Shown here piece after piece: positions 12,488-64,000 of a stretch of 64,000 nucleotides of DNA. Source of the DNA: an uncultured delta proteobacterium (GTDB taxonomy: Bacteria; Desulfobacterota; Syntrophia; Syntrophales; Smithellaceae); contig CAVWEH010000002.1 in the NCBI GenBank assembly GCA_963753975.1, forward strand, positions 480,001-544,000. Reading direction: 5' to 3'. Made by a program: the position numbers and the translations under genes. Under the pieces are notes generated by a model that saw only the letters and a program-made list of their open reading frames with translations, did no database searches and was not told where the DNA came from. The first letter of the stretch is position 1, and each line of letters opens with the position of its first letter.

Positions 12488-13707
12488 TCCCAACTAATAA
12501 ACCGTCCTATGCTTTAGCCGATCTTTATGCCGCTCTGTTTCATGATCCCCGTGCGGTTGAGCTTTTTGAAGATGAATTGACCCAACGATTCGATTTTAAC
12601 GACGCCATCGTTTTTCCCTATGGACGCAGTGCGCTTTACGCGGCATTGAAATCGCTCAACTGCCCGGCAGGGGAGGTAGTGCAATCTGCTTTCAACTGTG
12701 TCGTTGTCGCCCATGCGACTATAGCTGCGGGCCATCGGCCTGTCTTTGTTGATGCAACAGCCTCATCGCCAAACCAGAATGCAGATCAAATGGTTCAGGC
12801 TGTCGGTCGTGAAACAGTTGCTGTAATCCAGACAAGCATTTTTGGTATGACATTTGATACAGAGGGATTGTGCGGAGAAATCCGCCGTCGGAACAGCAAC
12901 GCTTGCATTCTGATTGATTGCTGCCAGGCTCTGGACGCACGTTGGCAGGGAAGATTGCTTATGCATTCCGGAGACGGGGCTCTTCTGGCCTTCGGGATCG
13001 GTAAACCCATGACCACCCTCTACGGCGGTGTGCTGCTGACAAACCGCCCTGATCTGGCCGCTGCCGTCCGCACCTTTAGGAACCGCACATATCGTCAGCC
13101 CGGCAGTATTGCGGTCTTCAGACGCTGGCTCTACTTTATTGCCTCTTGGGCTGCACTGTCCCCAGCGCTGCTTTCTCTAACGGATTATCTGATTAATGCC
13201 GATACGCCCTTGAGCCGCTACCTCTGGAAACTCAGAGCCAGGGAGGCCATTCGCCTTCCCAAAAACAACGATATCCTCATGCTACCGCTGGAAGCAGCTA
13301 TTGGACGCAGTCAGCTTAAACGTGTGTCGCAATTTATGACACGACGCCGAGAGATTGCCACTCAATATAACGAAGCCTTCGGACAATTGCCAAATATAGA
13401 AATACCATGTTGGAATGAAGGTTCAACATTCACCATTTATACAATTAGGCTTAAACAACCGCTGGATAGGCCGCGGGTAATATCTTTAATGCGTAAAAAA
13501 GGCGTCCGGTGTGATACTATTCTAAGTTATGTTATTCCGGGTCTTGCATGTTACCGGGAACGGGGTTTTTCGGCGGAGGCCTTTCCGCATGGCCGTGCAT
13601 GGTCGGAGTCCGTCTTGAATCTTCCCAGTTATCCTCTTATGACGGATAAACAAATTCAGAAAGTCATTCGAACAATGAAAGAAACCGTTGGGACGCTCTA
13701 TGAATAA
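12484..13707 (+). CDS. DegT/DnrJ-like aminotransferase (divergent)
   Basis: YGRSALY, LIDCCQA, FGIGKPMTTLYGG, VLNLPSYP. Confidence 0.85.
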   Translation: MIPTNKPSYALADLYAALFHDPRAVELFEDELTQRFDFNDAIVFPYGRSALYAALKSLNCPAGEVVQSAFNCVVVAHATIAAGHRPVFVDATASSPNQNADQMVQAVGRETVAVIQTSIFGMTFDTEGLCGEIRRRNSNACILIDCCQALDARWQGRLLMHSGDGALLAFGIGKPMTTLYGGVLLTNRPDLAAAVRTFRNRTYRQPGSIAVFRRWLYFIASWAALSPALLSLTDYLINADTPLSRYLWKLRAREAIRLPKNNDILMLPLEAAIGRSQLKRVSQFMTRRREIATQYNEAFGQLPNIEIPCWNEGSTFTIYTIRLKQPLDRPRVISLMRKKGVRCDTILSYVIPGLACYRERGFSAEAFPHGRAWSESVLNLPSYPLMTDKQIQKVIRTMKETVGTLYE

Positions 13708-14434
13708 TCGACATGCGGCTATTGAAACATTACGTTCCGAGTATGACGGAAGGTTACTTGATCCCGAGGAGCGAAAACAGCAGGCGCAGCGCCTTTATTC
13801 AGCCCTAATGACAGCGGGGCTATGGCCTGCCCAGCCACGCATTCTCGACGTGGGCTGCGGAGCCGGCATCAAGCTTTCTTTCCTCGGTGAAAATGTCAGC
13901 CTTCGCGTTGGTTGTGATATTCGTCGCGAAAACTATTTAAATATATCTGATGCGGTCAGCAACATCAGGTTTATTCAGGCAAGCGCTACAGAGCTGCCAT
14001 TTCCCGAGGGGAGTTTCGATCTGGTAACGTGCATTAGTGTTATTGAGGAGCTCCCGGATTTCCCGGCGGCTATCGCGGAAATGGCCCGTTGTGTTGCAAA
14101 GGGAGGTGTACTGGTTATGAATGTCACCAACGGTGTTCTTCTTGAACCCTTATATCAGTTGGCAGAAATGGTGGGAAGAAAGATTCCCGAAAGTTGGTGG
14201 TACTATGCTTCTGCCGGTAAGACTATTGTTAAAGCTAATCTCGATATAGGCTATCATATCGGCTGCCTTGAGGGCTGGCAATATACTCATTTAACACCAT
14301 ATATTATCCGCAGCCAATTCCCAATCATGAGATATCTACCTATATCCCTGCTTGATATCATATCGCGTTGTTTAGCCCCGACCTTTGTCCATGCCTGGCA
14401 AAGACCGACGGAATCCGATGAGGGGAGAAAATAA
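13700..14434 (+). CDS. Class I SAM-dependent methyltransferase
   Basis: ILDVGCGAG, ELPFPEGSFDLV. Confidence 0.85.
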   Translation: MNNRHAAIETLRSEYDGRLLDPEERKQQAQRLYSALMTAGLWPAQPRILDVGCGAGIKLSFLGENVSLRVGCDIRRENYLNISDAVSNIRFIQASATELPFPEGSFDLVTCISVIEELPDFPAAIAEMARCVAKGGVLVMNVTNGVLLEPLYQLAEMVGRKIPESWWYYASAGKTIVKANLDIGYHIGCLEGWQYTHLTPYIIRSQFPIMRYLPISLLDIISRCLAPTFVHAWQRPTESDEGRK

Positions 14435-56651: not shown

Positions 56652-56728
56652 GGCGGTGTAGCTCAGCTGGTTAGAGCATACGGCTCATATCCGTAGTGTC
56701 CGGGGTCCGATTCCCTGCACCGCCACCA
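56652..56728 (+). tRNA. tRNA-Met (CAT), elongator-type; integration target
   Basis: GGCGGTGTAGCTCAGCTGGTTAGAGCATACGGCTCATATCCGTAGTGTCCGGGGTCCGATTCCCTGCACCGCCACCA. Confidence 0.92.
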
Positions 56729-57825
56729 TAATTATAACAAGGACTTAGGAGTTTTTCTAAGTCCTTCTTTTTTGCGCCCGGGTCACTTTCCGTGCCATAA
56801 ATGTCATCTAAAACGCTTACCGCCTTCATTCTTTTCTCTTTTAATGAATAAAGATATTTTTTAGTGGTTATCAGATTTGTATGTCCAAGGAGCTCACTAA
56901 CAACCTGAACATCAGGCCTATTATTTTCACTACCCATAGCTATTGTTGAGGCGAAAACATCCCTTAAATCTTTGGCAGTGATTTTAATCCCTGTTTTCAT
57001 TGTTATCCTTTTAAACATTTTATCTCTTCTCAATATCCGCTTACCGTTATTGTGATGAAATATAAAAGGCGAATCGGTTTTATAAGCCTCTAATCCTTTT
57101 AAAGTCATATAAAGACCATTACACATATCCAGCTGCCTTAAAGAACTTTCAGTTTTTGTTCCCCTGATTATAATTTCCCTGTTTTCATAATTTACGTCGG
57201 TCCATTTACTGGACAGCGCTTCAGATAATCTTTCGCCGGTAAAAAGTAAAAACCTGAAGAATAAAAGTTCTTCTTTCTCTAACGCTGATTCAGCCTTTTT
57301 TATTTCTTCAGGAGTAAAACCATTTTTTATGATCCTTTCCGGCCTGATTCTTTTTCTGGAAACTTTCCTCATAGGATTTAGGTCTATTATTTCTTCTTTC
57401 ACCGCCCAGTTTAATAATGCGTTTAAATCCGTCACATAATGAGTGATAGTATTCTTTGATATATCCCTCTTGCATTGTTCATCAATGAACGCTTCAATGT
57501 CATTATGAGTAATATCTTTCAGCCGCTTTCCCGCTGTAAAGAAAGGTAAGATAAAACTTTTAAAATTGGAAACGAGTCCACGCACCCTATTTTCAGATTT
57601 ACCGATTCTAGCAGAGTAAGCCAAGAAACCATTCACCGCGTCAACACAAGCCATATTAGAAGCGGAAGCAGCCAATGAGGCCTCTCTCCTTAGTTTACCC
57701 AGATGATTTTCCGCTGCCTTTTGAGCTTCATCTCTGGTATTCCAACCGGAGAGCCTGTACCTGTTTGAGTGAAAGCATATCTGATAGCCCCACTTTCCGG
57801 TATCTTTCCTTTTTCTTATTTGCAT
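56671..57825 (-). CDS. Tyrosine-type site-specific integrase
   Basis: TGERLSE (R), GTKT (K), KDLR (His replaced by Lys), LLGH, TTKKY; C-terminus encoded antisense to the tRNA. Confidence 0.9.
   Translation of the reverse strand: MQIRKRKDTGKWGYQICFHSNRYRLSGWNTRDEAQKAAENHLGKLRREASLAASASNMACVDAVNGFLAYSARIGKSENRVRGLVSNFKSFILPFFTAGKRLKDITHNDIEAFIDEQCKRDISKNTITHYVTDLNALLNWAVKEEIIDLNPMRKVSRKRIRPERIIKNGFTPEEIKKAESALEKEELLFFRFLLFTGERLSEALSSKWTDVNYENREIIIRGTKTESSLRQLDMCNGLYMTLKGLEAYKTDSPFIFHHNNGKRILRRDKMFKRITMKTGIKITAKDLRDVFASTIAMGSENNRPDVQVVSELLGHTNLITTKKYLYSLKEKRMKAVSVLDDIYGTESDPGAKKKDLEKLLSPCYNYGGGAGNRTPDTTDMSRML
56739..56773 (+). terminator. Intrinsic terminator for tRNA-Met, inside the integrase ORF
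   Basis: AAGGACTTAG/CTAAGTCCTT stem followed by CTTTTTT. Confidence 0.8.
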
Positions 57826-58021
57826 CGAGATTAACCTCCTCCTCTCTCGACTTGATATAATTTATCAAGTCAATTTTTCTGTAACGGATTAGCCCCCTGC
57901 CCTTTCCTATCCTGATCTTGACTAGACCACACAATCCGTAAACCATATTAACTTTAACTTTTAAAATCTCCGCTATTTGGTTTACTGTCAAAAGCTCAGG
58001 GTATTTATCCAAAAAATTCAT
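57728..58021 (-). CDS. Excisionase-like helix-turn-helix protein
   Basis: PELLTVNQIAEILKV...IRYRKIDLINYI; overlaps the integrase start. Confidence 0.75.
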   Translation of the reverse strand: MNFLDKYPELLTVNQIAEILKVKVNMVYGLCGLVKIRIGKGRGLIRYRKIDLINYIKSREEEVNLDANKKKERYRKVGLSDMLSLKQVQALRLEYQR

Positions 58022-58046: not shown

Positions 58047-58334
58047 TTATTTTCTGATTTCCAAATCGCCAGCATTATCTAGTCTAATATCACCAACGCG
58101 TAATGCATCTTTCAATTTAGCGAATACCTTGTCTCCAACTGCAACAGCCTGTATTAAGCCCAACCTGTCCAGTGATTGCATATCCTCTAGCCCCATCTCA
58201 ATAAGATTAGCCATCATTTCGCTTCTTGTCCTGCGCCCTCTTATAGCGCGAATCCTATCAATTTCTTTTACTATGCTTGGTCTCAACATTACTGTGTATT
58301 GCTGTTTTGCTTCTTCCACTTTTGGTCTTCCCAT
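58047..58334 (-). CDS. Ribbon-helix-helix (CopG-like) regulator
   Basis: MGRPK...YTVMLRPSIVKEID...TRSEMMANLIEMGL. Confidence 0.7.
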   Translation of the reverse strand: MGRPKVEEAKQQYTVMLRPSIVKEIDRIRAIRGRRTRSEMMANLIEMGLEDMQSLDRLGLIQAVAVGDKVFAKLKDALRVGDIRLDNAGDLEIRK

Positions 58335-58421: not shown

Positions 58422-58628
58422 GTTATTTTTTTACTCTTCCGAAAAGATTACGGTGTGTCATTTTTCGCCATTTGTAAGGGTATTTATTTCTTCCTGAAGT
58501 CAATAGGATGGCAATACATGAAAATATACAACATTTCTTTCGGTAATAAATACTTACTGAATTAATGTGATCCCGTAATTTAATTCAAAATAATATCTTA
58601 TGAAGGATTAATCTGGCTAATAATATCT

Positions 58629-59627
58629 TCAGTCATGAATTAGCGAACGACCATTTTTGCTGAGGTAAGGATCGAGAGTTTTCCAGTCTATTGTGATGAA
58701 AACATTAAAACCTTTCATATAAACTTCAAAAAATCCGAAGCCCAACCCATCTTTCAAGATCACCCACTCACTAGGTGAAGTTACTTTATGCATGATCTCC
58801 CAAGTGCTAATTTTATTGTATGGGTACTCTCTTTTCAGGTACTGAGCAATTTTCTCATCCTGCAGTTTCTGAGAAACTAGTGCTGCAACTTTGCTCTGCC
58901 AGTCGGTTTTATCACCGAATAAATCTGCAGCTTGTAATTCCCTTTTGCTTTCTAACAGCCAAGAAATGGACTCTGCTTCCGCATCGGTTCGATATGGACT
59001 TGCTGCACCCTCACTTATCATAGAGTCTAAACGTCTGACTGATATTAAGTGCTTGTTACTAAAGCTAACGGTGTATTCGTTATTACGATTTATACAACCT
59101 CTGGAATATTTAGAATGGCCAGTGGCGTATTTAGAAATAAAATTATTCCAGAATTTCTCATTTTCGTCTCGCGGGTTTTCAATTTGCGGATACGTGAGAT
59201 CGTTTCTTGAATAATGAGCATAAACATTTCTAAAAATACGATCAGGGAATTTGATCAAGCTGCATTGCAGTTGTTTGATTCTTTCTTTATAAGTCTCCTT
59301 TATTCCACTATCGGGGTTAGTATAGGAAGATATTATTTTGAGCCAGTACTTCTGATATTGCCTTGTTTCCTTCTGACCTTCAGGAGATAAATTGGTCATG
59401 GCGTCATGGTAAACTTTAGCCATCTCTTCATCGAGTTTGGAGAGTTCTGCATCGGAGCATACGATCTTCTCCACCTTACTGGCAGCCTTCTGGCAATCAA
59501 AGCTTGCGGCAGTGGCTTGTGTGGAAAATAATCCGCAAAGAATAATGGCTCTGAAAAATACTTGTAGGAAGGAACTTCTGATGGCTCCCGCTTTTCTGAT
59601 ACTATTTGAACCATTAGTCGATTTCAT
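58629..59627 (-). CDS. Exported protein with LprI (DUF1311) lysozyme-inhibitor-like N-terminus
   Basis: Signal peptide then ASFDCQKAASKVEKIVCSDAELSKLDEEMAKVY. Confidence 0.75.
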   Translation of the reverse strand: MKSTNGSNSIRKAGAIRSSFLQVFFRAIILCGLFSTQATAASFDCQKAASKVEKIVCSDAELSKLDEEMAKVYHDAMTNLSPEGQKETRQYQKYWLKIISSYTNPDSGIKETYKERIKQLQCSLIKFPDRIFRNVYAHYSRNDLTYPQIENPRDENEKFWNNFISKYATGHSKYSRGCINRNNEYTVSFSNKHLISVRRLDSMISEGAASPYRTDAEAESISWLLESKRELQAADLFGDKTDWQSKVAALVSQKLQDEKIAQYLKREYPYNKISTWEIMHKVTSPSEWVILKDGLGFGFFEVYMKGFNVFITIDWKTLDPYLSKNGRSLIHD

Positions 59628-59771
59628 AACTGCCTCCGGTTAAGCTATGTAGTGATGAAAATAATTTTAAGCTTGAAGGATGATGATATTTATTTTCTAA
59701 ATGATTGCAATAGATATTATTTCGTGACGAAAATTGCGTATGTATCAATATTGAATGTTTCTACCAGTTAT

Positions 59772-59847
59772 CATCAATTTATCTTGACAGGTTTTTCTAA
59801 CACTTAGTAGGTGAAACAAATAATCGACTTCTTCCTGAAGTCGGCAA
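59772..59847. repeat. Inter-cargo repeat copy A
   Basis: ACTTAGTAGGTGAAACAAATAATC is 20/24 identical to copy B, then TCGGCAA; contains TTCTTCCTGAAGTC, also at 58488. Confidence 0.65.
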
Positions 59848-59990
59848 CTTCCTAGATTTCATATTTATACTAGATTGCTAGTGGAAATAGTGATATTAGG
59901 AAAGCGTATTTAAAAGGCAAGCTCAAATAACAGTCCCATATTATGCATCCTTTTTAAGACTAAGTGAGGGTGTTATGTGGCTGATTTTTG

Positions 59991-60029
59991 AAACCCCGTT
60001 TCTTAAAAAAGAGTGGGGTTTTATTTTTT
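59991..60029 (+). terminator. Intrinsic terminator-like hairpin
   Basis: AAACCCC...GGGGTTT stem followed by TATTTTTT. Confidence 0.6.
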
Positions 60030-60112
60030 GGGATACTGTTATAATTAAAACTACCTTTAGTGACATTCTGATAGTTAGGTAATTTACATTTTTAAGCATA
60101 GAATAAGGTTCA

Positions 60113-60754
60113 ATGATGCAAATATCAGAGTTAACAGTTAGACTAATAATTCTCATCATTCCCGGTATAGTCGCAACTTTAATAGTGGATACTCTGACAA
60201 TTCATCGGGAATGGAGTCCTTTCAGGTTTAGTATTTATTCAGTAGTGTTAGGAGTCACATCTTATATATTCTACCAATTATTCTTGTGTATGTGGCATCT
60301 ATTATTTTTGTTATGCCCACTCTTTCCTGACCCTCCAAGTTTAATATTTTGGTCGTCATTATTTGATAATACGATCCCAATTTCCATATACGAAGTTATT
60401 TTTACATGTTTATGCGGTTTAGTTTTAGGTCTTTTATTTACTAGCATTATTAACCATCAATATTTATACAAAATTACAAAGAAGCTAAAAATATCAGATG
60501 TATATGGTGAGGAAGAATTATTTACACATTTTATGAGGAAGGACGATGTAGAATGGGTATGGGTAAGGTGCAAGACTACAGGTTTGACATATGATGGTTA
60601 TGTAGATAGCTTTGCAGAAACTGAAAAATTACAAGAAATAGAATTGAAAGATGTTACTGTATACAATTCAGAAGATTCTAAAGAATTATATAAACTATCA
60701 AAAATTTATCTTGCTTCACAACCGGGAGACTTTATAATCGAAGTTAGAAAATAA
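60113..60754 (+). CDS. Membrane protein, DUF6338-like
   Basis: LIIPG first TM, further TMs, then WVWVR...YDGYVDSF..E...EIELKDV beta domain. Confidence 0.6.
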   Translation: MMQISELTVRLIILIIPGIVATLIVDTLTIHREWSPFRFSIYSVVLGVTSYIFYQLFLCMWHLLFLLCPLFPDPPSLIFWSSLFDNTIPISIYEVIFTCLCGLVLGLLFTSIINHQYLYKITKKLKISDVYGEEELFTHFMRKDDVEWVWVRCKTTGLTYDGYVDSFAETEKLQEIELKDVTVYNSEDSKELYKLSKIYLASQPGDFIIEVRK

Positions 60755-60772
60755 TTAGAAGGATAATCTATT

Positions 60773-60928
60773 ATGGAAAAAAGAGAAGCCGATCTAAAAG
60801 AAGTATTTGAGGTTAGGAAAGGCGGTTCAAAACCAAAACCTACTACACCAAAACCACAGGGGCCACCGCCACCATTAAAGCCGCAGGGACCACCACCTCA
60901 ATCAGAGCCACAGAAGAAGTCAAATTAA
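60773..60928 (+). CDS. 51-aa proline-rich peptide (not in ORF track)
   Basis: MEKREADLKEVFEVRKGGSKPKPTTPKPQGPPPPLKPQGPPPQSEPQKKSN, AAGGA RBS, 18 nt after the DUF6338-like stop. Confidence 0.6.
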   Translation: MEKREADLKEVFEVRKGGSKPKPTTPKPQGPPPPLKPQGPPPQSEPQKKSN

Positions 60929-61080
60929 AGGATAGATACAAAAACGTATAGTTCTTGAAAAACAATTAACAATCTTCAAGAAGAAATAAAGAACTTATGT
61001 CTATGACTTATTTTGAGGGGTTTGGATTATTATAAAGCATACATATGGACAGTGTCGGATGCATGAACTAAGATTGGGAG

Positions 61081-61623
61081 ATGCAAATGGATACACACGA
61101 TTGGGCGGCATTATGTACTGCCCTTATCGCAATAGGCACGTGGGCCCTCGTTTTCGCCACCTTCCGACTCGTTAAAGAGCAGCATGAGACGACCAAGGCC
61201 GAACTTAGGGTAAAACTACAAGTGCATATGGAAGACAGATTTGACTCCCACTCAATGCTCCTAGCACGCCAAGCACTGGCGAGCAAATTGCTGGCTGGTG
61301 TTCCCCGCGAAGATATTCAAGAAACAGTAATGAACTTCTTCGAATCTCTTGGGACACTTTTTCGCCGCGATTATCTTGATCCGGATATGATGTGGGAAGA
61401 TTTCAGTTTCCATGCCACACGATGGTGGAGTGCTACGAAAGACTACATACTCGCGGAACGCAATTTACAACGTAACGATGATACGATTTTCCATGATTTC
61501 CAGAAACTAGTTGATGAATGCTATTCTATAGAAAGTACCAGAAGAAAGCTCTCTAGGGCACAGCTTGAGCCCAGTCGACAAGACGTAAAACAGTTTTTGA
61601 TTGATGAAAGTAATCTTCTGTGA
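61081..61623 (+). CDS. Single-TM protein, DUF4760-like
   Basis: N-terminal TM; VMNFFESLGTLFRRDYLD motif. Confidence 0.55.
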   Translation: MQMDTHDWAALCTALIAIGTWALVFATFRLVKEQHETTKAELRVKLQVHMEDRFDSHSMLLARQALASKLLAGVPREDIQETVMNFFESLGTLFRRDYLDPDMMWEDFSFHATRWWSATKDYILAERNLQRNDDTIFHDFQKLVDECYSIESTRRKLSRAQLEPSRQDVKQFLIDESNLL

Positions 61624-61655
61624 GGCATCATAGGGGTTACTCCCTTTCCGTCAAT

Positions 61656-61726
61656 AATCTTCAATTATGACAACTACCCATTACTGAAACTTTGTAGGTG
61701 AAACAGTGAATCTGTAGGTTCGGCAA
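61656..61726. repeat. Inter-cargo repeat copy B
   Basis: 33/42 ungapped identity to copy C; shares GTAGGTGAAACA and TCGGCAA with copy A. Confidence 0.7.
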
Positions 61727-61847
61727 TCCAAAAAAAATCATAATTTAGTTTTTTTGTTGACTCCTGCCTGAAATTCTCATTTTTCAAATTATCGATTCTA
61801 TGCTAGGTTACAACAAGTAATCGTTAGAGAGAGAGAGGAAAGAAATT

Positions 61848-62474
61848 ATGAAATTAAGAAGATTGATTGCAATTTTGTTAATATCTTTTATCGCAATTTT
61901 TCCCATTGCATGCAGCATGGGGCAAACAAGATATGACTTATGTAACACACCAGTTATTGGGTTAATCATGTATCCATTATTTCTTTGTGCCTCCTCACCG
62001 CTCATTCCTGAGACGGATATCTCACTTTTAGAATCTGGCGTTGTGTTAAAAACAATTTTCAAAGCACGTATCGAAAAAAGCTATAAGTTAATACTATCTT
62101 TTTATTTTCCAAAGGATCAAGATAGAGATAAAGACAATATTATAGGAGGACCAGGATACGACGGATACTGCAGAAGCTGCTTAGAAGAATGTAACTCAAA
62201 TCGAATGTCAGAAAGCGAAGAATATCGTAAATCTTATGGGACAATGATTCCTATTAGAGTCATAGTAACGAAATTGTCAGATTCAACTGTTGTTGTTGAT
62301 AAGACATTCCAAACTGTGTGTTCTATTGCATCGGGAGCTAACGATAAATGGAGAGACATTGGTTGGATAAAATTAACTGAAGGCAAGTATTCAATTGAGA
62401 TTATTAACACCACAGCTCAACCAGAATTAAAAGGAATTCAAACGAAAATTGGGTTATATATGGGAGGACATTGA
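61848..62474 (+). CDS. Putative lipoprotein/exported protein, DUF5625-like
   Basis: Signal peptide ending IAC; YGTMIPIRVIV, KLTEGKYSIEI. Confidence 0.55.
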   Translation: MKLRRLIAILLISFIAIFPIACSMGQTRYDLCNTPVIGLIMYPLFLCASSPLIPETDISLLESGVVLKTIFKARIEKSYKLILSFYFPKDQDRDKDNIIGGPGYDGYCRSCLEECNSNRMSESEEYRKSYGTMIPIRVIVTKLSDSTVVVDKTFQTVCSIASGANDKWRDIGWIKLTEGKYSIEIINTTAQPELKGIQTKIGLYMGGH

Positions 62475-62555
62475 AAATAAAACGAATGCTAAACCATTAA
62501 TCCAACGTGTGGCATACAACTGATGGTGATCATTGTGTTTCACCTTTCAAATAGC

Positions 62556-62608
62556 AATCCTCAATTTTGACAATCACTCTCCACTGAAACTTAGTAGTGT
62601 AAGCAACA
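62556..62608. repeat. Inter-cargo repeat copy C, immediately downstream of rep
   Basis: AATCCTCAATTTTGACAATCACTCTCCACTGAAACTTAGTAG; inverted AGGTGAAACA at 62536-62545. Confidence 0.7.
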
Positions 62609-62627: not shown

Positions 62628-63698
62628 CTATGAATATTCATACTGCTTTTTATAACCTTCAAATTCTTTTTCAAATACAACATCATCATTACCAACTGCA
62701 GGAATATACAAAGACCACTTAACAGGATTGATATATTGATCTCGCCCTATTCCAAGCGTATGCTCACCGTCAGAATTTCTTATCTTATGCCGCATATTAT
62801 AAAGACGTTTTTTAAAAAGCCATAACAAAGCCCTTATCAATTCCATTTTATCTTTTATCTTTTTATCAACATCACCCATAGGAGATAAAGATTTTGTAAT
62901 GTATCGCGTCAAATAACTTGCAAGGACAGCGCCGTTATCATGATGTCTTATAGGCTTACCAAATCTAATTCCTTGCGGCTGCGAATAAGGCCACAACTTG
63001 CTTAAATCCTCAATTTTCGCCACCCATGAACCATAAAACAACAAATGAAAATGAACCATTCCCTTTTCTGTAAATTCCATTACCCATGCAATAAAATTAT
63101 TTGGCTCACTATACTTCTTTTTATGCATTCTTAATTTACGCAAGAAATCAGAAACAAAATATCCGCCAACCACAGCAAGATAAGCTTCCGGTCCTAGATA
63201 CCACCAATCAGGAATAATCTGTTTAACAATATCAGGATCAAAAGTAAGGATTAAATGACTTACCTTTTTTAATCCCTTTACTTCATCCAAAGCACGTTGA
63301 CCAACAATCCAACTATAATTATATTCACTATTCCAACGAGATTTATTCGGGAAAGTCTTTAATTCCCCCGCTTCATTGACCAAAGGAGGCGACATTGAAC
63401 CATCAACCCGAATCAACATTTTTTTAAAATCATTAATAATATCCTTTTGATCAACAAAACCAAATTTAATAGGCTCTGATAGTTTATGATTCTCTAACCA
63501 ATTATTACCGCCAGTAGCAAGGCCATAAGGGCAATCTCTTTTTTCTTTTGTTTTTTTGTCAAAATCAGCACTAGTCAGTCTGCTATGCTTCCGGCACGCC
63601 CTGCTTGCGCTAAGAGCTTGCGCGCCTTCGCGATTAATTACCTCAACAACCCTCGAGCCCGGAATCGAATTTAAAACAAACTGGACTAAATCTGACAT
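62628..63698 (-). CDS. Rolling-circle replication initiator (HUH endonuclease)
   Basis: Motif I HLILTF, motif II WVMEF...VHFHLLF, motif III YLTRYITK; ATG 63698 with GGGGG RBS. Confidence 0.8.
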   Translation of the reverse strand: MSDLVQFVLNSIPGSRVVEVINREGAQALSASRACRKHSRLTSADFDKKTKEKRDCPYGLATGGNNWLENHKLSEPIKFGFVDQKDIINDFKKMLIRVDGSMSPPLVNEAGELKTFPNKSRWNSEYNYSWIVGQRALDEVKGLKKVSHLILTFDPDIVKQIIPDWWYLGPEAYLAVVGGYFVSDFLRKLRMHKKKYSEPNNFIAWVMEFTEKGMVHFHLLFYGSWVAKIEDLSKLWPYSQPQGIRFGKPIRHHDNGAVLASYLTRYITKSLSPMGDVDKKIKDKMELIRALLWLFKKRLYNMRHKIRNSDGEHTLGIGRDQYINPVKWSLYIPAVGNDDVVFEKEFEGYKKQYEYS

Positions 63699-64000
63699 GA
63701 AATACACCCCCTATTTAATATCAATCCATATCTCTTGTATGCCGATTCGCACGTCCGACTCCGACTGCTGGCTCTATCGTCGCCAGCCGCCGCAGTCGGG
63801 CTATTTTCAGTATTTCACACACTTTATTTTTTATAAAAAATCCTACTCACCGTTACCCTCGCCGTGCCATTCTTGAGACATAATCAACAAAAAAAGACGC
63901 AAAAGATCGCAAAAGCGTATTTCTTTACGGCTTAATAAAGTGCTGATTAAATTGTTAAATTGTGATTTGTCTAAAAAACAAGAAAGGTGAGGCGGCAGCC

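Follow-up and report, generated by a model that had tools for sequence, protein, structure and literature searches.

The tRNA-Met element and its modules

The window analysed here is a 64,000-nucleotide (nt) stretch of the genome of an uncultured bacterium of the order Syntrophales (G000:C2:480001-544000, G000 being the source genome). Near its end, an integrative element of about 7.3 kb is inserted at tRNA-Met, with a 44-bp attachment (att) repeat whose two copies start at 56684 and 64000. The element carries an integrase gene (int), a rolling-circle replication gene (rep) and three cargo modules bounded by recurring sites. These sites, and the way in which they may let gene modules change neighbours, are the subject of this study. 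The features of the element are listed below.

56652..56728, plus strand: tRNA-Met(CAT), the integration target; its 3' part (56684-56727, 44 bp) is found again at the element's other end
56671..57825, minus strand: element integrase (Int), a tyrosine recombinase of 384 aa (Pfam)
57728..58021, minus strand: HTH_17 protein, likely the excisionase (Pfam)
58047..58334, minus strand: backbone protein of 95 aa, likely a regulator; no Pfam family, kept in relatives
58490..58547, plus strand: site D, core 2 (CTTCCTG, 58490-58496) and inner R arm (box 58534-58547)
58629..59627, minus strand: cargo of module 1, LprI-domain protein of 332 aa (Pfam)
59758..59888, plus strand: junction A, L arm (box 59758), core 1 (GTAGGTG, 59807-59813), 17-bp linker, core 2 (CTTCCTG, 59831-59837), R arm (site model)
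60113..61623, plus strand: cargo of module 2, three open reading frames (ORFs; Pfam, ORF list, site model)
61645..61794, plus strand: junction B, L arm (box 61645), core 1 (GTAGGTG, 61694-61700), 59-bp linker, core-2-like ACTCCTG (61760-61766), R arm (box 61781; site model)
61848..62474, plus strand: cargo of module 3, DUF5625 protein (Pfam)
62545..62600, plus strand: site C, L arm (box 62545) and degenerate core 1 (GTAGTGT, 62594-62600; site model)
62628..63707, minus strand: rolling-circle HUH Rep (PF23343), with H219-x-H221, Y265 and Y269 conserved
64000, plus strand: the right att repeat starts here and runs on outside the window (G000:C2:544000-544043)

The order is thus backbone, D, LprI, A, three ORFs, B, DUF5625, C and rep. 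Site D is both the left end of module 1 and the backbone boundary, and an equivalent place is found in the related loci L174, L190 and L191. Site C likewise closes module 3 on the right and borders the backbone; the rep stop is 27 nt away. The ORFs of module 2 encode a DUF6338-like protein (60113-60754), a 51-aa proline-rich peptide (60773-60928) and a DUF4760 protein (61081-61623), and the site model detected no internal site among them. The 51-aa ORF follows straight after the DUF6338-like gene and has no Pfam family match. The linker of junction B also occurs in an array of another genome (G013), and its R arm in the first module of L190. An Rfam search returned nothing at the gathering score apart from the tRNA. 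The int, xis and HUH rep genes and the att repeat in a tRNA, which together define pSAM2-like elements, are all present in this carrier.

An earlier note, made from the letters of this DNA, had described diverged copies (A, B and C) of the sequence just downstream of rep and had proposed that genes are captured one after another at a rep-proximal site. The repeats are real, yet they are members of a genome-wide family of paired sites rather than Rep-specific. Copy C (62556-62597) matches copy B (61656-61697) at 33/42 positions, 900 bp away; copy A (59802-59825) matches B (from 61689) at 20/24; the copies sit on module boundaries, and the rep stop at 62628 lies 31 nt off copy C. The family names LprI, DUF4760 and DUF5625 stand, with the DUF6338 match below the cut-off. 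Also present is the inverted 10-mer TGTTTCACCT (62536-62545), which overlaps the variable 5' edge of the L arm (CACCTTTCA in 25 arms, GTTWCACCT in three). The 14-mer TTCTTCCTGAAGTC does recur at 58488, but there it contains the other core type, CTTCCTG, and is not a degraded version of the site seen in A, B and C. Similarly, the TTGACA before copy A is there but is incidental, being found in only 12/286 arms. A fading of similarity away from rep was not observed: over arm plus core, identity is 33/62 for A-B, 40/62 for B-C and 34/62 for A-C. The closest copies of B (50/62) and C (42/62) are on other contigs, and by nhmmer the rep-proximal C is the weakest of the three, with 37.5 bits where A scores 41.8 and B scores 50.6.

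The paired sites and the movement of modules

Iterated nhmmer gave 37 matches at E<=0.05 in the source genome, whereas its reversed sequence gave none even at E<=1, which places the repeats far beyond chance; models of the L and R ends found 29 L and 42 R ends vs 0 + 0 in the control. The site profile was positive in 74/101 genomes of the order, with a maximum of at least 39 sites per genome, and patchily in the phylum (17/141). A pattern scan of GTDB matched at least 126 stretches, of which 80 were listed; four matches without profile support were taken as chance. Viral contigs gave one pattern match, and no relatives of Rep or of the recombinases described below were found in them. Copies often form arrays in the same orientation with 1-2 genes between them, up to seven copies per 12-20 kb. 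The genes beside the sites are diverse (TPR proteins, PAS kinases, hydrolases, HEPN proteins and many unknowns among 135 ORFs scanned). Clustering of 1330 ORFs revealed no recurring neighbour enzyme; a recombinase profile did reveal one.

Each cargo module runs from core 2 (CTTCCTG) through an R arm, the gene or genes and an L arm to core 1 (GTAGGTG), with inner arms of 50-60 bp at each end. The L end consists of TTTCAA-N3-GTAATCCTCAATT followed, about 25 nt on, by core 1; in the R end, core 2 is followed about 37 nt on by a box of the same type and orientation as that of the L arm (TTTCAA-N3-GTAAT). Exact cores were found in 219/288 (core 1) and 205/266 (core 2) ends, partly owing to model selection. 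Dyad symmetry over 233 sites peaks on the 7-mer GTAGGTG (0.094; the runner-up, 0.075, lies on 5 columns), and the arms end TT, spacer, AA. RNAalifold predicted no pairs on 55 sites, so that a palindromic hairpin of the attC type is absent.

Cargo modules alternate with linker modules that run from core 1 to core 2 and measure 16-17, 45, about 63 or 100-110 bp, or consist of an entire 279-aa recombinase gene. Among 266 R ends, 89 are preceded by an L end, 33 by a core-1-like word only and 144 by neither; the linkers of the 89 are mostly 16-17 bp (34 cases), 45 bp (21), 62-66 bp (10) and 100-110 bp (8). Linkers of 106-116 bp recur as units that terminate at or shortly past core 2, which indicates that both core types serve as breakpoints.

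Three modules that occur at more than one locus were traced at base level. The first, a 171-aa gene, lies at separate loci in G002 and G000 with 91% identity, and its homology extends from core 1 to core 1. The second is a PF00144 gene shared by G013 and G002 (97.8% identity), homologous from core 2 to core 1. The third, the MetA-pathway gene of the source genome, occupies another locus in both G005 and G010, the homology stopping at the core. At one host locus, the source genome and four relatives each have a distinct L arm on the same flank, and a fifth relative is module-free. When 301 L and 273 R sites were compared, 38/43 (L) and 18/20 (R) of the pairs with a shared interior, which are not independent of each other, differed outside; identity past the core was 10 nt or less in 35/38 and 16/18 of these, respectively. 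That these sites belong to a site-specific module system is, in our judgement, highly likely. LprI homologues elsewhere mostly lack bounding sites, so that 115 family genomes (two candidates scored in each) yielded no moved copy of the modules seen in the window.

The earlier note had named a reused promoter or regulator site as its alternative, and would have taken a promoter motif common across the genome as telling against its own proposal. The motif is indeed common in the genome, but it is no promoter. The sites are always intergenic (0/288 L sites within a long ORF), and the arm box is in most cases 2-3 mismatches of 9 from the IHF consensus, a weak likeness; both would suit a regulatory site. 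However, the gene after an L end faces the site in only 73/196 cases (the gene before it points toward the site in 187/216), promoter-like matches are at chance (19 vs 17.2 +/- 4.1), TTGACA is rare in the arms and homology breakpoints coincide with the cores. The promoter or regulator reading is largely refuted, and we give it next to no credence.

Long target-site duplication was considered and rejected. Adjacent sites do have downstream DNA in common more often than random pairs (11% vs 0.9%), but the 12 cases examined were mostly shared linkers or R arms, with only about four resembling host DNA.

Two duplications were seen. One of 466 bp within a single array (L013:10069-10534 and 13244-13709, 99% identical) begins at core 2 and is a sign of recent activity. 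In the source genome, a radical SAM gene has its first 200 bp present twice, behind two successive core 1 sites (G000:C2:435037-435240 and 441314-441517), the upstream copy having core 2 at +277.

The rep gene and the candidate recombinases

Rep matches PF23343 only and no NCBIfam family, while a true IS91 transposase elsewhere does match NF033538. From these matches, Rep is classed as a rolling-circle HUH protein, not an IS91 transposase. Fifteen close rep loci with a 3' end were counted by eye, one duplicate and three fragments having been removed. In 13 of these, core 1 lies 13-29 nt past the rep stop with different DNA beyond; in one it is displaced and in one disrupted. In related int-rep elements the cargo varies, while the two site types around it stay the same. 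In L174, L189, L190 and L191 an additional R end stands at the far side of the cargo, and the listed cargo is unrelated. A related tRNA-Met element in G172 is broken by an insertion sequence with ORFs of 504 and 243 aa (L188:10122-12357), IS21-like by look.

The conserved core past rep, together with the HUH nature of Rep, is what the proposal of serial capture would lead one to expect, in which Rep (or Int) nicks the rep-proximal site and duplicates it each time. However, only one of the approximately 37 sites of the source genome adjoins rep, and relatives of Rep occur in 12/339 genomes of the order vs 74/101 with sites. Five distant reps (27-43% identity) have no core at their 3' end, and three of their elements hold core 2-to-core 1 modules elsewhere; the site therefore belongs with the cargo, not with rep. 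The similarity gradient is absent, and two distinct cores exist, which does not fit a single site duplicated and then decaying. IS91-type elements have a 4-nt target, no duplication and palindromic ends (PMC13181058), in contrast to the 7-bp repeats and unfolded arms seen here. Moreover, the att repeat of Int begins at CTCATAT, in the anticodon loop, and resembles neither core. Array-making by Rep or Int is thus unsupported, and we regard it as very improbable. What holds of that first reading is that these are recombination-type borders of exchangeable cargo without attC or IntI, and that the rep-proximal spot is a conserved exchange point.

Two types of mobile recombinase were found at the cores. 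The first is an element of 2.1-2.3 kb with two overlapping tyrosine recombinase genes and 12-bp inverted ends (36/339 genomes). Both ends were identified in 22 of the 30 best loci, and 19 of the 22 elements are flanked by exact 7-bp repeats: GTAGGTG (8), GTAGATG (2), CTTCCTG (6) or CAAATAC (3). These repeats define the cores independently and imply that a tyrosine recombinase cuts there; taken with the 7-bp spacer in the dyad, they argue for a tyrosine recombinase rather than a HUH nick. An asymmetric 6-8-bp spacer between inverted arms, repeated upon integration, is what characterizes a tyrosine-recombinase site, and it is found here. Each subgroup of the element occupies one core type, and one element of another order lies inverted at core 1. 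We consider it very likely that a tyrosine recombinase acts on the 7-bp cores. Serine recombinases of the IS607 type (GG crossover) were rejected, as the source genome has no resolvase and the dyad is centred on the 7-mer; IS200/Y1 enzymes were also rejected, none being present in that genome. It does contain one IS110.

The second type is a simple tyrosine recombinase of 279 aa (58/339 genomes), with 1963 relatives at E<=0.001 in a large database, not all of them close. Among its 22 closest loci (at least 78% identity, within the best 30), core 1 lies about 110-135 nt upstream in 17/21, core 2 lies downstream in 15/22 and both flank the gene in 13/22, vs 5% and 8% for core 1 and core 2 in shuffled controls. 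The gene has its own 13-bp inverted repeats in 19/22 and 21/22 loci. Eight more distant loci have CAAATAC upstream (6/8) and core 2 downstream (5/8), and in G404, from another order, four copies of the gene keep the link to core 2 and the R arm. Sites were present in 15/16 sampled genomes with the gene vs 58/84 without it, although kin are not independent.

Catalytic motifs are intact, and Pfam detected no arm-binding domain in the candidates. The closest relatives of the 279-aa recombinase with a solved structure are archaeal XerA; a search of plasmids gave no relatives above 30% identity for either candidate, and sequence comparison of Int with the 279-aa protein showed no significant similarity. 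In a recombinase tree in which 9/13 branches are unresolved and one XerC row is mis-framed, the 279-aa family forms its own group. With the IntI model TIGR02249, the candidates scored 52, 77 and 98 bits and Int 56, against a cut-off of 265.

The host XerC and XerD, with accessory proteins on the arms as at pdif or cer/psi, could recombine the sites instead. Their orthologues pass the NCBIfam cut-offs in 5/6 site-rich genomes tested, where the mobile candidates are missing, and the alternating module logic fits dif modules (PMC13141974). Against this, the spacer is 7 bp instead of 6 and the sites are patchy in the phylum. The dif arms of E. coli are also unlike arm ends of the form TT, spacer, AA. 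The search for the host's own dif gave noise only and dif was not identified, so the comparison of the cores with it is incomplete. We think this route improbable. In the source genome, xerD lies in two frames (G000:C2:602300-603600), by sequencing error or in reality; G002 (L231) and G013 (L232) have a similarly shortened open frame, and that of G011 is whole.

Proposed exchange and its alternatives

The reading that we favour, with some reserve, is that gene modules swap neighbours at the two fixed 7-bp cores, which would be tyrosine-recombinase crossovers served in trans by an enzyme from mobile recombinase modules. As judged from their positions at the cores, the 279-aa family or the two-recombinase elements probably supply this enzyme. 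Only like cores (1x1 or 2x2) would recombine, because tyrosine recombinases require matching spacers: homology of the 7-bp overlap is required in lambda-type recombination (PMC7581858), and exchange of dif modules follows matching spacers (PMC13141974). One crossover would then excise or integrate a circle of cargo plus linker, and two in succession would let chromosome and element trade one cargo. The int-rep backbone, once circular, would itself be a linker-type module, and the element a replicating carrier of modules, in which Rep would only replicate and Int only integrate at tRNA-Met. The arm boxes may bind a bending or directionality factor, and new host loci may be entered via core-like words with relaxed matching.

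Several observations weigh against this proposal. Partner cores are often missing: 193/288 L ends have no R arm downstream and 144/266 R ends no core 1 upstream, so that the first entry into host DNA would not be one clean crossover. At the two loci inspected, an empty site with a readable core was not found. The shared-interior pairs are, as noted, non-independent, and three of them have an IS91 copy in common rather than cargo. Three of the 22 two-recombinase elements are flanked by unequal words. Furthermore, the source genome contains neither candidate enzyme, but only XerC, XerD, Int and two fragments. Both candidates are likewise absent from 14/17 site-positive genomes of the phylum sample and from the site-rich G343, G473 and G455, while five site-negative genomes of that sample have distant relatives of them. 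The surveys of enzyme prevalence scored just 5-7 candidates per genome. As half of CALINs lie in genomes without intI (PMC4889954), a transient supply of the enzyme is plausible here.

Some of these points would also suit another arrangement, in which cargo modules are non-autonomous transposon-like units whose ends are joined and inserted together with relaxed target homology, the recombinase modules being partly site-hunting passengers. Half of the R ends and two thirds of the L ends adjoin DNA without a partner core, arrays open with core 2 and close with core 1, the cores round three of the 22 elements are unequal, and pdif-hunting insertion sequences are known (PMC10132070). On the other hand, the 6-bp spacer of SE elements varies among copies (PMC9345347) and both cores here are fixed; linkers recur as core-2-terminated units, and the homology of the 171-aa gene spans core 1 to core 1. 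We consider this arrangement unlikely.

On the analogies available, the best reading would be like-with-like tyrosine-recombinase exchange resembling that of Acinetobacter dif modules. The Rep_3/OrfX dif modules share the two alternating module types, a backbone that is itself a module, exchange by spacer identity, a cointegrate-and-resolve route and site-hunting elements (PMC13141974). They have variable 6-bp spacers, XerC/XerD and plasmid carriers (same source), unlike the two fixed 7-bp cores in direct orientation, the asymmetric inner arms, the order-wide chromosomal dispersal, the rolling-circle integrative carrier and the candidate dedicated recombinases described here. Integrons and CALINs are alike in their same-orientation single-gene arrays, often in enzyme-less genomes, and in the recombinase gene by the array end (PMC4889954). 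Unlike them, the present system has no palindromic attC, candidates far under the IntI cut-off and two sites per junction, and its modules bring 5' regions of their own and can lie in either orientation. The system functions like dif modules and integron arrays, yet it has the defining features of neither.

Lambda-type att sites (PMC7581858) also have a 7-bp overlap in imperfect inverted arms, and the boxes here are loosely IHF-like, but lambda-type att has no counterpart of the two heterospecific cores, the candidates without an arm-binding domain or the hundreds of non-autonomous modules. SE, GInt, RIT and Tn554-like elements are tyrosine-recombinase elements with terminal inverted repeats (PMC9345347, PMC5385486, PMC3414803, PMC8138268), and the 2.1-kb two-gene element resembles their layout; unlike SE and GInt (four genes) and RIT (three recombinases), it has just two overlapping recombinase genes and no third or accessory gene. 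Finally, IS91/ISCR elements (PMC13181058) combine an HUH enzyme and a conserved site directly 3' of its gene, whereas here there is no IS91 family match, 4-nt target or palindromic end, and the site does not depend on rep. The literature searched, which did not cover most subscription journals, contained no account of these sites or of a system of this kind in Syntrophales. The system is widespread, and apparently it has not been described before.

If the proposed exchange is correct, it would be a third path to gene-cassette arrays, next to integrons and dif modules. In syntrophic bacteria the system shapes much of the accessory DNA, a genome having as many as 39 sites or more, with cargo that spans metabolic, signalling, surface and defence-type genes, and some linkers look taken from host DNA beside a core, which bears on the origin of cassettes. 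One small recombinase with naturally orthogonal 7-bp sites could also become a cassette-exchange tool. More tentatively, and with slightly less than even confidence, we suggest a wider scheme of cassette exchange with several non-interchangeable 7-bp keys (GTAGGTG, CTTCCTG, CAAATAC and perhaps GATTGGA), giving dozens of landing pads per genome in Syntrophales and other Desulfobacterota. In it, the recombinase would travel as a module, rolling-circle elements would ferry cargo between cells and two-recombinase elements would be specialised per key.

Further words and elements were observed near the sites. The word GATTGGA/AATTAGA, about 23 nt past core 1 and followed by an arm of its own, is seen repeatedly at the ends of arrays (L026:5044 and 11322; L371, L370, L372; L196:324) and is a possible further core type. 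Tyrosine recombinases of about 200 aa with the catalytic domain only lie near sites at L055:4124-4726, L253:5777-6379 and L083:11038-11685, at no constant distance from a core. Three near-identical copies of an IS91-family element that includes an accessory tyrosine recombinase (L223, L226, L229 (G172), L079:1988-4457) were seen, each inserted beside a module-end arm box of the TTCAA type. A broken phage-type integrase lies beside tRNA-Leu and a module array at G000:C1:86314-86517. L079/L080 contains a tandem run of at least six TPR membrane-protein modules, 80-93% identical and mostly preceded by sites. An AT-rich linker with TATTTTCTTAAAAATAC repeats separates either two facing core 1 sites or a core 1 from a core 2 (L016:7187-7297; L017:7102-7210; L353, L358).

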